The notes below the pieces were generated by a model. It worked only from the letters and a program-made list of their open reading frames with translations, did no database searches and was not told the origin of the DNA. A program made the translations under genes and the position numbers. This document shows positions 22,721 to 49,367 of a DNA stretch of 64,000 nt, piece by piece (the first letter of the stretch is position 1; each line of letters opens with the position of its first letter). Source of the DNA: an uncultured virus (IMG/VR IMGVR_UViG_3300025467_000014) (taxonomy: Duplodnaviria > Heunggongvirae > Uroviricota > Caudoviricetes); the IMG/VR virus record IMGVR_UViG_3300025467_000014, positions 1 to 64,000 of that record. One strand, 5' to 3'.

Positions 22721-23171
22721 GGGGGCGTACTGGTTTCGACTTATACTCGAAGTTTGTATGGCACGTAGTGGTTAATCAGTTGGCCACTTTAAAAAGCTGA
22801 TTAAAAACATAAATGCAGAAGATAACTCTGACGCTATCCTTGCGGAAGCATTGTATTGTCTCGAGAACGCTGACGAAATCCTCGCCAGCTTTGAAGAGCC
22901 AGCACTCCTAGCTGCCTAAGGAACCAAAAGATAATCCTATTAAAGCTTTTGGAAATAAAAATAGGTTTAGAAGGTCTTGTGATTCTTAGAAAATTGAGTG
23001 CAAGCGGTGGTATGTGGTCGTTAATCACACATACAGGTAGGACTCTAAACATGGATAGGTCGCTAGTGCCTGGTTACCTTTAGTCAACCAAAGTACGAAA
23101 GCTAGCTAAGCGTGTAGAAGTATAAATAGAAAAGTATAAACACAGGGGTTCGACTCCCCTCGCCTCCACCA
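22721..23171 (+). ncRNA. ssrA: tmRNA (transfer-messenger RNA)
   Basis: 5' GGGGGCGTACTGGTTTCGAC; 3' T-arm GGGGTTCGACTCCCC and CGCCTCC-A-CCA with G3.U; tag frame 22815-22919 ending LAA-TAA. Confidence 0.95.
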
Positions 23172-23277: not shown

Positions 23278-23640
23278 ATGGCTTCTACACGTTTAAGCGC
23301 AGCTCGCGATATAGCACATGGTAAATTTCCAGCAACAGGAGTGAAACGATCTCCTAAATGGGCTGCTGTACGCAAGGAACATCTTAAGAATAATCCAAAA
23401 TGTGCAATTTGTGAAGGTACAGAAAAACTTAATGTACATCATATTAAACCATTTCATTTACATCCGGAATTAGAACTCGATCCAAGTAACTTTATTACTC
23501 TTTGTGAAAGTGCAAGTTATGGTATTATCTGTCATATTCTTGTTGGTCATTTAGGTGATTATAAAAACATAAATCCAAATTCTGTAGAAGATGCTAAAAT
23601 TTGGAACGCTAAATTAAAAGAAGATCATTTTCAGAAATAG
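23278..23640 (+). CDS. HNH endonuclease
   Basis: CAIC...VHHIKPF...SNFITLC...CH motifs. Confidence 0.85.
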   Translation: MASTRLSAARDIAHGKFPATGVKRSPKWAAVRKEHLKNNPKCAICEGTEKLNVHHIKPFHLHPELELDPSNFITLCESASYGIICHILVGHLGDYKNINPNSVEDAKIWNAKLKEDHFQK

Positions 23641-24004: not shown

Positions 24005-24076
24005 CGCAGAGTAGAGAACTGGTATCTCGTCACGCTCATAACGTGAAGGCAGTGGGTTCGATTCCCACCTCTGCCA
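24005..24076 (+). tRNA. trnM: tRNA-Met(CAT), initiator-like
   Basis: TCACG-CTCATAA-CGTGA anticodon arm; C1/C72 mismatch; A11:U24. Confidence 0.88.
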
Positions 24077-24085
24077 ATTTTTTAG

Positions 24086-24114
24086 TTGCCACTTCCTTAT
24101 TCAGGCATTATATT
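24086..24114 (+). promoter_or_regulatory. sigma70-like promoter of the large non-coding unit
   Basis: TTGCCA-17 nt-TATATT; boxA-like GATCTTTGATA at 24130. Confidence 0.6.
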
Positions 24115-24120
24115 AAAAGA

Positions 24121-24635
24121 ATAAGAATTGATCTTTGATAGTACATTTTGAAATTTGACTAGGCGCAAGTCTTAAAAGCTAAAAGACTCCCGCGATAGGT
24201 GATAGCGAAGCATTCGGCCGAGTGAACGTGTAGCCTATAAGATAAATCTCCGTGAAAGCGAATGAGGTTTTCTAGTCATACAAATTAAGTTCCCACGTTG
24301 TAGGTATAATCCGTGGGAGAGATACGTTGAGTTGTCTGTTGGTATGTTAGTAGACGTATTTTCATAGGAGGAGCCAAAAACTTACATACAGCTACGATCC
24401 CTTGCTTTAATAAACACAGACTGGTCGACGAGCTGGCTCCATGCCGGCACTCGATGAGGAGAGAACAAAATCCGGAACAAAAGCTTTTCAAACACCACAA
24501 ATTTTCATATAATGCTACCATGATGTCGGTCTCAAGTCCGAGCGATAGGAGATGGCCTCTCCTACGAAACGCAGAGAGAATGAAAACATAGACTGCAGTC
24601 TGCCCCTATTACCCTGATCAGGTAGTAGGGGTTTT
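24121..24635 (+). ncRNA. candidate large structured ncRNA (possibly several modules), family not recognised
   Basis: No credible ORF, higher GC than flanks, many helices, own promoter and intrinsic terminator. Confidence 0.6.
24603..24635 (+). terminator. intrinsic terminator
   Basis: CCCCTATTACC/GGTAGTAGGGG stem followed by TTTT. Confidence 0.8.
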
Positions 24636-24663
24636 CTGTGTTCTAGAATGATTAAATAATTAT

Positions 24664-24792
24664 ATGCTCGATCCACTGGAAGCTGCTATGGTGGGTTTAT
24701 TTACTTTAGGTTTTATAACAGCTTATGCTATAATGTATTCTACTAAGTTGGTAACTTTACTTGCAAAGTATTTTAAGGGAATCAAAAAATAA
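24664..24792 (+). CDS. 42-aa membrane peptide (MLDPLEAAMV...), not in the ORF track
   Basis: TAAATA at 24653; one TM helix and a basic tail. Confidence 0.5.
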   Translation: MLDPLEAAMVGLFTLGFITAYAIMYSTKLVTLLAKYFKGIKK

Positions 24793-24833
24793 TTCTTGAA
24801 TTCCTTTTCGAGTGCCCATATTATAAAGGGGTA

Positions 24834-25937
24834 ATGAGCACAACAAACACACTAGACAAGTTCGTCGCCAAGAGCAACGATATTCGCCAGACGCTGCAAG
24901 GTTATACCCTCGCTCCTCTGGATATTGAGTCCATCGAGAAGAACGGAAATAACTTCTCTTACAATAACAACCGCCTATCCAGTACATCTCTTAAGAGTCT
25001 CCTTGGAGTTCTTGGAGTTAAGGATCAGCTCGTTAACGAGATTAAGGATGACAGCTCTCAGTGGGCTCCTCTCCATAATGCTCTTACGAACATTAAGAAG
25101 AACAAGCGTGTAACCGCGATTGTTAATAACCACAACAATGAGATTGTTAATCTCTTCGATCGCCCTATCAAGGAAGAGCGTCAGATTGACCTCTCAGCTG
25201 GTCTCCGTTATACAGAGGCCTTCTTGAAGGACAACGAGAATAATCTCGAACTTCGTGACTTTAACTTTGATCCTACTAACATTAGTATTGGAATTAACTT
25301 CAAGAACCCTGATTCTGATATTGACGTATTCGGAGATGGTCATGATATGTGGAAGGGTGGTTTTGGAATGAACTTCTCTCTCAACAAGTCTCAGTTCTAT
25401 CCCTATCTCCTCCGTTTGGTTTGCTCCAATGGAATGACCGCTGTTCATCGTATGGCCCAGCGTTTCATCGATAGTGCTGACTTCAGTCAGAAGACCTTCG
25501 ATACTCAGGTTCGTAAGTTCCTAACTGGTGACGCTCTTCGTCAGGAGATTACGTCAAGTGCTAATCGCCTTAGGGATAACAATGCCTCCCTTAGAGAATT
25601 CAATGCTGCTCGTAGTATTACGATGAAGTATGATAAGGAGCTAGCAGTAACTGCTTTCTCTGATCACGAGATTCGTTCACGGTATAAAGAGGTCGGTATT
25701 GATCTTAATAAATCGAAGGGTACTCGTTGGCAGTCAACGGCTAACTCGAACGTTAATGCTTACGATCTCTTTAATAAGATCACAAACGTTGCTACTCACA
25801 GTGTCTCTGACGAGAACGTAGCATTCAGGATGGAGCTCAACCGACTTGCCTCTGAGTTGTTCTTCAAGGGACCAGACTTCGCTTCAATCGCACCGGATCC
25901 ATTCCGTGAGGTTGCACCAGCAAATCTTAACGCCTAA
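24834..25937 (+). CDS. DUF932-like protein
   Basis: LRLVCSNGM motif and C-terminal NAYDLFNKITNVATH. Confidence 0.75.
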   Translation: MSTTNTLDKFVAKSNDIRQTLQGYTLAPLDIESIEKNGNNFSYNNNRLSSTSLKSLLGVLGVKDQLVNEIKDDSSQWAPLHNALTNIKKNKRVTAIVNNHNNEIVNLFDRPIKEERQIDLSAGLRYTEAFLKDNENNLELRDFNFDPTNISIGINFKNPDSDIDVFGDGHDMWKGGFGMNFSLNKSQFYPYLLRLVCSNGMTAVHRMAQRFIDSADFSQKTFDTQVRKFLTGDALRQEITSSANRLRDNNASLREFNAARSITMKYDKELAVTAFSDHEIRSRYKEVGIDLNKSKGTRWQSTANSNVNAYDLFNKITNVATHSVSDENVAFRMELNRLASELFFKGPDFASIAPDPFREVAPANLNA

Positions 25938-25939
25938 GT

Positions 25940-26000
25940 AAATAAAGTAAACCGGGCGGGCCTCTGCACATGCAAGCTATCTCACGCCCGGTCTTTATTT
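25940..26000 (+). terminator. long hairpin, terminator- or processing-like
   Basis: AAATAAAG..ACCGGGCG / CGCCCGGT-CTTTATTT inverted repeat ending at the tRNA-Gly 5' end. Confidence 0.55.
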
Positions 26001-27884: not shown

Positions 27885-28397
27885 ATGAAATCTAAACTAG
27901 AACCTTTTAAAGAAGATGTAATAAAAATGTATGTTGATGAAAAATTAACATGCAAACAAATAGGATTAAAATTTAAAATAAGACCAGGGCCTGTTTCAAG
28001 TTTTCTTATTAAAAATAATGTAAAGCTACGTAATGCTGGTCAACAGAAAGGTAGACCCGGTACGAATAAAGGAAAGAAATTTGTAGAACGTACATTGGCA
28101 TACAATACACAACTTATTGAAAGCGGTGAATATAAAAAACTTCACGAAGCAGGTATAAGGAGCCGTATACGTAAATATCTAATTAACAAATATGGACATA
28201 AATGTCAAATATGTGGTCTGTCTGAATGGAGAGGACATGCTATACCTCTTGTATGCGATCACATAGACGGATCTGCTAAAAATTGTGAATTAGAGAATTT
28301 TAGAGTGATTTGTAATAATTGCGACTCTATACTACCTACATATAAAGGTAAAAATAGAGGCAGAGGTAGAAAACTTAACGGGAGCGTGACTGAGTGA
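27885..28397 (+). CDS. HNH (putative homing) endonuclease
   Basis: CQICG..EW...PL..DHIDG...N...NFRVICNNCDS; N-terminal HTH-like region. Confidence 0.88.
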   Translation: MKSKLEPFKEDVIKMYVDEKLTCKQIGLKFKIRPGPVSSFLIKNNVKLRNAGQQKGRPGTNKGKKFVERTLAYNTQLIESGEYKKLHEAGIRSRIRKYLINKYGHKCQICGLSEWRGHAIPLVCDHIDGSAKNCELENFRVICNNCDSILPTYKGKNRGRGRKLNGSVTE

Positions 28398-28470
28398 TTT
28401 AAAGTGATCGATTACTAATCGATTGAACCCTAATAAGGTTCCGTGGGTTTGAATCCCACCGCTCCTTCCA
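28380..28470 (+). tRNA. trnS: tRNA with ACT anticodon (nominally Ser), class II
   Basis: GGGAGCG/CGCTCCT acceptor, ATCGA-TTACTAA-TCGAT anticodon arm, long variable arm, CCA encoded. Confidence 0.82.
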
Positions 28471-49274: not shown

Positions 49275-49367
49275 CCGCCTATAGTTTAATGGTAGAACCC
49301 TTGTTTTATACACAAGAAGCTGGGAGACTCTGGCGCAGTGCAGGTTCGAATCCTGCTAGGCGGACCA
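49275..49367 (+). tRNA. trnI: tRNA-Ile(TAT) with long variable arm
   Basis: CCGCCTA/TAGGCGG acceptor, CTTGT-TTTATAC-ACAAG anticodon arm, 23-nt variable region, A73-CCA. Confidence 0.85.

Follow-up and report, generated by a model that had tools for sequence, protein, structure and literature searches.

A probable non-coding operon in a phage tRNA array combines two uncatalogued RNA families with a predicted twister ribozyme

The window analysed here is a stretch of 64,000 nucleotides from an uncultured virus (IMG/VR record IMGVR_UViG_3300025467_000014); it belongs to a virus record of 74,880 bases, and an identical stretch also occurs in a 199-kb record. On the plus strand, a unit bounded by a promoter and a terminator lies between tRNA-Met (24005–24076) and a 42-codon open reading frame (ORF), which is followed by a gene for a 367-amino-acid protein. 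The location is a phage tRNA array; a tmRNA (22721–23171) and other tRNAs lie nearby. T4-type Gp23 capsid genes are present in four of the five larger relatives. The features of the unit are listed below.

24086–24640, plus strand: non-coding operon, from promoter to terminator
24086–24114, plus strand: sigma-70-type promoter (−35 at 24086–24091, 17-nt spacer, −10 at 24109–24114; 10/12 consensus)
24121–24154, plus strand: unstructured leader with a BoxA-like element (24128–24141)
24155–24278, plus strand: module 1, an optional four-way-junction RNA, here in form A1 (124 nt; no Rfam family)
24214–24221, plus strand: self-complementary tip of the module 1 long arm, a candidate kissing loop
24279–24289, plus strand: A/U-rich linker, into which module B is inserted in 7 of 24 arrays
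24290–24490, plus strand: module 2, a pseudoknotted RNA of about 200 nt (no Rfam family)
24290–97/24312–19 and 24320–28/24353–61, plus strand: 5′ part of module 2 (5′ hairpin and P1, respectively)
24299–304/24381–86, plus strand: likely loop–loop helix of module 2 (6 pairs that are 97% paired and vary on one side only)
24334–39/24416–21 and 24346–48/24413–15, plus strand: pseudoknot helices of module 2 (3 and 2 two-sided changes)
24367–74/24391–401, 24424–28/24451–55, 24435–45 and about 24461–87, plus strand: 3′ part of module 2 (P2, P3, a small hairpin and the 3′ hairpin)
24471–24476, plus strand: 6-nt palindrome in the A-rich loop of the module 2 3′ hairpin, a candidate dimer loop
24502–24586, plus strand: module 3, a type-P1 twister ribozyme (RF03160, clan CL00120)
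24502–08/24580–86, 24513–15/24571–73, 24526–29/24538–41 and 24546–52/24558–64, plus strand: twister stems P1, P2, P4 and P5
24531–33/24576–78 and 24517–18/24536–37, plus strand: twister pseudoknots T1 and T2
U24510/A24511, plus strand: predicted cleavage site, with catalytic A24511 and G24574
24590–24601, plus strand: 12-nt palindromic hairpin 3′ of the ribozyme (a different palindrome or extra modules in other arrays)
24602–24640, plus strand: intrinsic terminator (12 pairs and a U run)

We regard the unit as almost certainly a genuine non-coding RNA operon. A first-pass annotation had proposed a structured non-coding unit here, and every motif that it listed is present where it was placed. 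Its view that the unit lacks a credible ORF also holds, as the 45-amino-acid frame on the plus strand and the frames of 38–78 amino acids on the minus strand vary among arrays, and the alignment of relatives reveals numerous 1-nt insertions and deletions in module 2. Compared with shuffled sequences, the whole unit folds with z = −2.33 on the plus strand and −0.65 on the minus strand. The proposed terminator is borne out (24602–24632, z = −4.6), module 1 reaches −2.9 and the leader has no fold; modules 2 and 3 each fold no better than z = −0.9, so their support comes from covariation and not from energy.

Promoter-like sites in the single sequence are no rarer than expected by chance (13 versus 12.4 in shuffles), yet at 19 of 21 loci the best site, with its 17-nt spacer, stops 15 or 16 nt short of an 18-nt leader word, a conserved spacing that sustains the earlier promoter call. 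Transcription would thus start near 24121. A second promoter-like site (24485–24513) was rejected, as it overlaps the twister and is not conserved among relatives. The leader word is carried by 22 viral contigs, 21 of which are arrays. The 14-mer of the BoxA-like element occurs in 18 of the 301 genomes examined from one bacterial phylum, and at one of 15 loci checked, in the bacterial genome G054, it lies about 320 nt upstream of a 16S rRNA gene. In rRNA operons, BoxA recruits the host antitermination complex (the Nus mechanism).

Relatives were gathered with four independent anchors: the downstream protein (13 loci), the twister core (17), module 2 (18) and the leader (22). The module 2 pattern gave at least 118 matches in metagenomes, with 21 true arrays among the matches listed; matches with the right spacing were judged by eye. 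At least 24 distinct arrays in related T4-like phages hold both the leader and module 2, which this count demands by construction. When 100 of the 119 matches to a relaxed viral pattern were scored with the module 2 model, two were true (one of them new, L230) and one was a weak chance match; six other candidates (L043, L060, L352, L353, L360 and L361) were rejected as chance matches. A distant BLAST search of an annotated phage collection with the unit returned no match, two pattern matches in bacterial and archaeal genomes were both chance occurrences in coding DNA, and the module 2 model matched none of a sample of 151 genomes of one phylum, a search run without a positive control. None of the five larger relatives has a second copy of module 1 or 2.

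The helices first proposed for module 1 are upheld by the comparison: in form A1, 34 pairs are 99.7% paired with four compensated pairs in nine sequences, counted, like those of the other modules, on the alignments from which the structures were derived. A model of A1 finds 8 of 10 modules of a second form, A2 (E = 0.01–0.12), and nothing in the three loci that lack module 1. Conversely, the A2 model returns all nine A1 modules as its best matches (E = 0.04–0.49). Because the two models detect each other weakly but selectively, over the closing stem and the first arm, A1 and A2 are probably homologous forms of one family.

For module 2, the two outer hairpins of the first-pass annotation hold in relatives. 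Its inner structure fared differently: a pseudoknot at 24342/24384 is 64% paired and two helices at 24388–24399/24423–24434 are 51% and 75% paired, no better than shuffles, and the same is true of the inner model overall, at 74%. The revised model has 48 pairs that are 98.8% paired, 15 of them with two-sided changes (22 sequences). These counts exceed all 500 shuffles and every slid control, a comparison to be read as support and not as a probability, as the model comes from a helix scan of the same 22-sequence alignment and the sequences are related and represent few lineages. In the revised model, the strand 24413–24421 forms both pseudoknot helices, each with a different segment of the P1 loop; the 5′ hairpin and P2 can also contact each other, loop to loop, by base pairing. 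A six-pair helix of the first-pass annotation at 24370/24435, invariant in all sequences, is a possible alternative pairing.

Such a compact core, with two covarying pseudoknot helices, many invariant unpaired letters and a presence in every array, could also suit an RNA that binds a ligand or acts as a catalyst, perhaps one that sponges up a nucleotide signal used in anti-phage defence, in which case dimers would be secondary. We give this reading little credence, as no riboswitch or ribozyme family matches up to E = 10 and the neighbouring genes vary and offer no clue to a ligand.

The helices that had been noted in module 3 are real, but they are P1, P4 and P5 of a twister ribozyme, a known class that the first-pass annotation missed when it matched the unit to no named family; for modules 1 and 2 that statement stands. 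RF03160 aligns across its full model at 24506–24582 with a 23-nt insertion (25.8 bits, E = 0.0035), which does not reach the Rfam gathering threshold of 67.2 bits. The twisters of relatives, at 27–34 bits, likewise fall under the cut-off, and the family matches all eight array loci of one comparison set. The defining features of twisters, and the roles of an A and a G at the active site, have been described (PMC5408937). Module 3 has in common with type P1 the stems P1, P2 and P4, the pseudoknots T1 and T2, the cleavage-site A and the catalytic G.

Across 15 sequences, the core (P2, P4, T1 and T2) is 98.9% paired with four compensated pairs: one in P2 and three in P4, stems that come with an invariant G–C closing L4. 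T1 (three pairs plus A–A) and T2 (two pairs) are paired in all 15 and almost invariant, and the cleavage-site A and catalytic G are invariant in all 15. The hairpins added in relatives are inserted precisely where the family has its optional P3 and P5. A descriptor built from the family features matched at a single site when the window was scanned on both strands; it also matched 13 of 15 relatives and 1 of 30 simulated 64-kb strands.

Module 3 differs from type P1 in its score below gathering, in A–U for G–C in T1 and T2 (its T2 being A–U/C–G where the family has a conserved GC) and in its 3′-terminal place in an operon of RNAs only. The A–U/C–G T2 is shared by L030, an unrelated viral twister with identical core letters that scores above its cut-off (twister-P5, 54.3 bits versus 37.6). 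About 94% of the natural twisters assayed in one study cleave, and the only defects that impaired them were those in a pseudoknot or in catalytic letters (10.1101/2024.07.11.603121). On its anatomy, module 3 very probably cuts the precursor at the predicted site. A role for twisters in cutting polycistronic transcripts has been put forward as a suggestion only (PMC6765202). Separately, L021, L025, L028, L030 and L031 are unrelated viral contigs with the same A–U-substituted twister core, mostly just 5′ of protein genes.

The composition of the arrays varies. Among the 24, module 1 is A1 in 10, A2 in 11 and absent from three; a tRNA lies inside five arrays, including all three without module 1; and a twister is present in 21, the remaining three contigs ending too early. 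On a tree of module 2, the labels A1, A2 and none require 9 changes versus 9.5 for shuffled labels, and the presence of module B requires 7 versus 6.2, on a tree in which 10 of 19 branches are open and the starred branches force at least 3–5 changes per label. As the module types are unlinked to the module 2 tree, modules appear to have been swapped as cassettes at the A/U-rich linkers, and we are fairly confident that each of modules 1 and 2 is a cassette independent of the other. A phage that is more distantly related (G407; also L348) has A2 and module 2 in the 387 nt that separate protein genes. The 20 kb read there contain no leader word, and a twister lies not alongside but 6 kb away; thus neither leader nor adjacent twister is required.

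Other elements were seen in and around the arrays. Module B (L005:3347–3446 and six other arrays) is a third uncatalogued structured RNA of 77–139 nt with no Rfam match, and always sits between modules 1 and 2. Optional hairpin modules, several with palindromic loops, occur 5′ of module 2 or 3′ of the twister (L062:2106–2190, L010:3812–3870, L066:2568–2655 and L090:1742–1815). On the reverse strand of L080 (about 145–247), a tRNA-like element between module 2 and the twister scores 47.8 bits with the Rfam tRNA model and has an anticodon arm about 30 nt longer. The twister 6 kb from modules 1 and 2 in G407 (C1:54700–54900) is a stand-alone twister-P1 of 35.8 bits, followed by a small folded element and a terminator.

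Eight runs hold a small share of the stretch, and four RNA-library runs from four studies were examined. Their contigs, from relatives with 7–13 differences, cover 24151–24367, 24285–24460, 24306–24475 and 24285–24486; one spans modules 1 and 2 and another (24285–24460) carries module 2 together with module B, so modules may stay on one molecule. These contigs are assembled, were chosen for holding the stretch and possibly stem from DNA, and they do not show transcription, strand or ends. None lies over 24536–25987 and their ends fall at 24460–24486, which fits a cut at 24510 but is not counted as evidence.

The first-pass annotation had offered two options, one large ornate RNA or an array of small RNAs, and of these the array is the better. 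In the former, a single multi-domain RNA like GOLLD or ROOL would have optional domains and a 3′ end trimmed by the twister. The contigs that join modules, the paired travel of modules 1 and 2 into G407 and the ability of GOLLD to embed a tRNA (PMC12990946) all speak for such a molecule. However, module types exchange freely across the module 2 tree, the unit would cut itself, each module is closed upon itself between A/U-rich linkers (helices having been counted within modules), no GOLLD or ROOL covariance model matches, and the core is far below the 581 nt of ROOL (PMC5737381). We therefore consider one large RNA improbable; the unit is probably an array of small structural RNAs that are released by processing and pair with copies of themselves, and whose role we infer.

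Processing could also be the function of module 1 itself. As a tRNA-like RNase substrate or a novel self-cleaving ribozyme, it would make the 5′ end of module 2 while the twister makes its 3′ end, and ligation of the resulting 5′-OH to the cyclic phosphate could then close module 2 into a circle. The four-way junction of module 1 is cloverleaf-like; all three arrays without module 1 have a tRNA 5′ of module 2, when only five of the 24 carry one; module 1 was not found without module 2 on sufficiently long contigs; and different ribozyme classes cluster in bacteria (PMC6765202). Against this, module 1 has neither a CCA end nor a canonical T-loop (by eye) and matches no Rfam ribozyme or tRNA, module B can sit between modules 1 and 2, and G407 lacks an adjacent twister. 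Circularization finds no RtcB match in any of five phage records, which are incomplete, and a host enzyme could take its place. Such a processing device is unlikely in our judgement. Similarities to the consensus motifs of hammerhead, HDV/theta, hairpin, twister-sister, RNase P and c-di-GMP RNAs, noticed by eye, were rejected as not conserved across relatives and without an Rfam match.

The self-pairing of the array RNAs is suggested by their loops. A central palindrome of at least 6 nt is present in the 3′ loop of module 2 in all 22 sequences, as three different hexamers; the hexamer has changed independently twice on the tree, and each time self-complementarity was kept to the innermost two letters. 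The tip of the module 1 long arm is self-complementary in all 18 distinct sequences, with three types of palindromic central tetramer (only the central four letters were counted, the outer part being the stem itself). The innermost palindrome letters change together yet cannot pair within one loop, which points to kissing-loop homodimers. Two module 1 variants have a purine-flanked hexamer that resembles the dimer-initiation loop of retroviruses. Two loops chosen as negative controls also have 4-nt palindromes in most sequences, so 4-mers are common in these loops; the controls either extend the pattern or show that 4-mers are cheap, and short loop palindromes may partly arise from fold-back mutation. 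RNAs of less than 200 nt can self-assemble via kissing loops (10.64898/2026.07.01.735769). On balance, we think it reasonably probable from the sequence comparison that modules 1 and 2 form homodimers through their palindromic loops.

A purely DNA-level origin of the palindromes, without RNA function, is hard to reconcile with changes that preserve G–U pairs and with pseudoknot covariation, both of which act at the RNA level, and the palindromes change sequence, unlike a protein site. The unit could alternatively be a cis-regulatory leader, as it lies upstream of the conserved 367-amino-acid gene in many phages, but a terminator closes it, the downstream genes vary and that gene has its own promoter-like site. 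Both ideas are very improbable.

For the array of small RNAs, we hypothesize a polycistronic operon with the layout of the tRNA operons of phages. Transcription by the host RNA polymerase would begin near the 5′ end of the leader, whose BoxA-like element, by analogy with rRNA operons, may recruit the host antitermination complex, and host RNases would cut the precursor in the A/U-rich linkers. Predicted twister cleavage would leave module 2 with a 3′ end bearing a 2′,3′-cyclic phosphate and shed a 5′-OH tail of about 126 nt that contains the terminator. Modules 1 and 2 would each pair with a second copy of themselves via the palindromic loop, and the 24299/24381 loop–loop helix may link further copies, so that the products would most likely be RNA-only dimers or oligomers. 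In infected cells these might serve as stable scaffolds or as decoys for host proteins, a role that we propose only tentatively. More speculative, and somewhat doubtful, is a kit of interchangeable, self-assembling RNAs from at least three uncatalogued families (1, B and 2, besides rarer ones), made as an antiterminated precursor, matured by ribozyme and polymerizing via palindromic and loop–loop contacts into particles of RNA alone that have some function in infection; module 1 might then be a new ribozyme class that frees or circularizes module 2 together with the twister.

Modules 1 and 2 are uncatalogued RNA families, and the twister adds one member to a class already known. Modules 1, 2 and B match no Rfam 15 family, either in the window or in relatives. 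Covariance models of GOLLD and ROOL give no match at the gathering score or up to E = 10, nor in relatives; those of manA, EGFOA, ARRPOF and MISL give none up to E = 10; and RNase P RNA, group I and II introns, riboswitches and other ribozymes give none to modules 1, 2 and B. The operon is undescribed in the literature that we found. Pieces of the modules may be listed in the supplements of Weinberg 2017 or PMC10690425, and the searchable supplementary files of the latter hold no match.

The unit resembles both the RNAs of phage tRNA regions and short self-assembling RNAs, and is a member of neither group. GOLLD and ROOL are likewise phage RNAs in tRNA arrays that multimerize via kissing loops (PMC5737381, PMC12990946), but they are single RNAs of about 580–830 nt, whereas the unit here consists of exchangeable modules of 120–200 nt that swap or drop out. 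T4 RNAC and RNAD are likewise small stable RNAs, role-less so far, from the tRNA region of T4-type phages (PMC3014915, PMC9697503); the accessible text of these sources reports no ribozyme or cassette exchange for them, and the likeness is one of description, the BLAST search of the phage collection having had no match. The RNAs manA (RF01745), EGFOA (RF02955) and ARRPOF are of similar size and self-assemble through loop–loop contacts (10.64898/2026.07.01.735769, PMC12990946), whereas self-assembly of the present modules is predicted from covarying palindromic loops only. Theta ribozymes of gut phages also cleave themselves in cis, and 3′-end trimming of an adjacent phage RNA has been proposed as their task (PMC10879173); they are HDV-like and lie beside tRNAs, whereas here a twister lies beside an uncatalogued RNA.

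The locus ties the RNAs of phage tRNA regions to twister ribozymes in a way that is testable by in vitro transcription alone. To our knowledge, no biological role is known for the small stable RNAs of these regions (T4 RNAC and RNAD, GOLLD and ROOL) or for bacterial twisters. The locus offers a predicted cut site and two new RNA families with covariation-backed folds. Natural palindrome variants are ready swap controls for dimer formation, and the 120–200-nt modules are direct candidates for a cryo-EM hunt for natural RNA-only assemblies.

Several neighbouring features deserve mention. The conserved 367-amino-acid protein (24834–25937) has no Pfam or PHROG match and does not always adjoin the array; its look-alikes in the Atlas are viral clusters in which 16–18% of members have DUF932. 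The tRNA region contains HNH-type ORFs at 23278–23640 and 27885–28397, the first with a Pfam HNH match. The phage tmRNA encodes an unusually long tag peptide of 34 residues, which has no match in 401 genomes of one phylum save one by chance, and in two related phages (L019:2270–2890 and L050:2983–3604) the tmRNA overlaps a group I intron. Two tRNAs have anticodons that are unusual for bacteria: tRNA-Ile with TAT (49275–49367), and tRNA-Ser with ACT (28380–28470), which is kept in several relatives.
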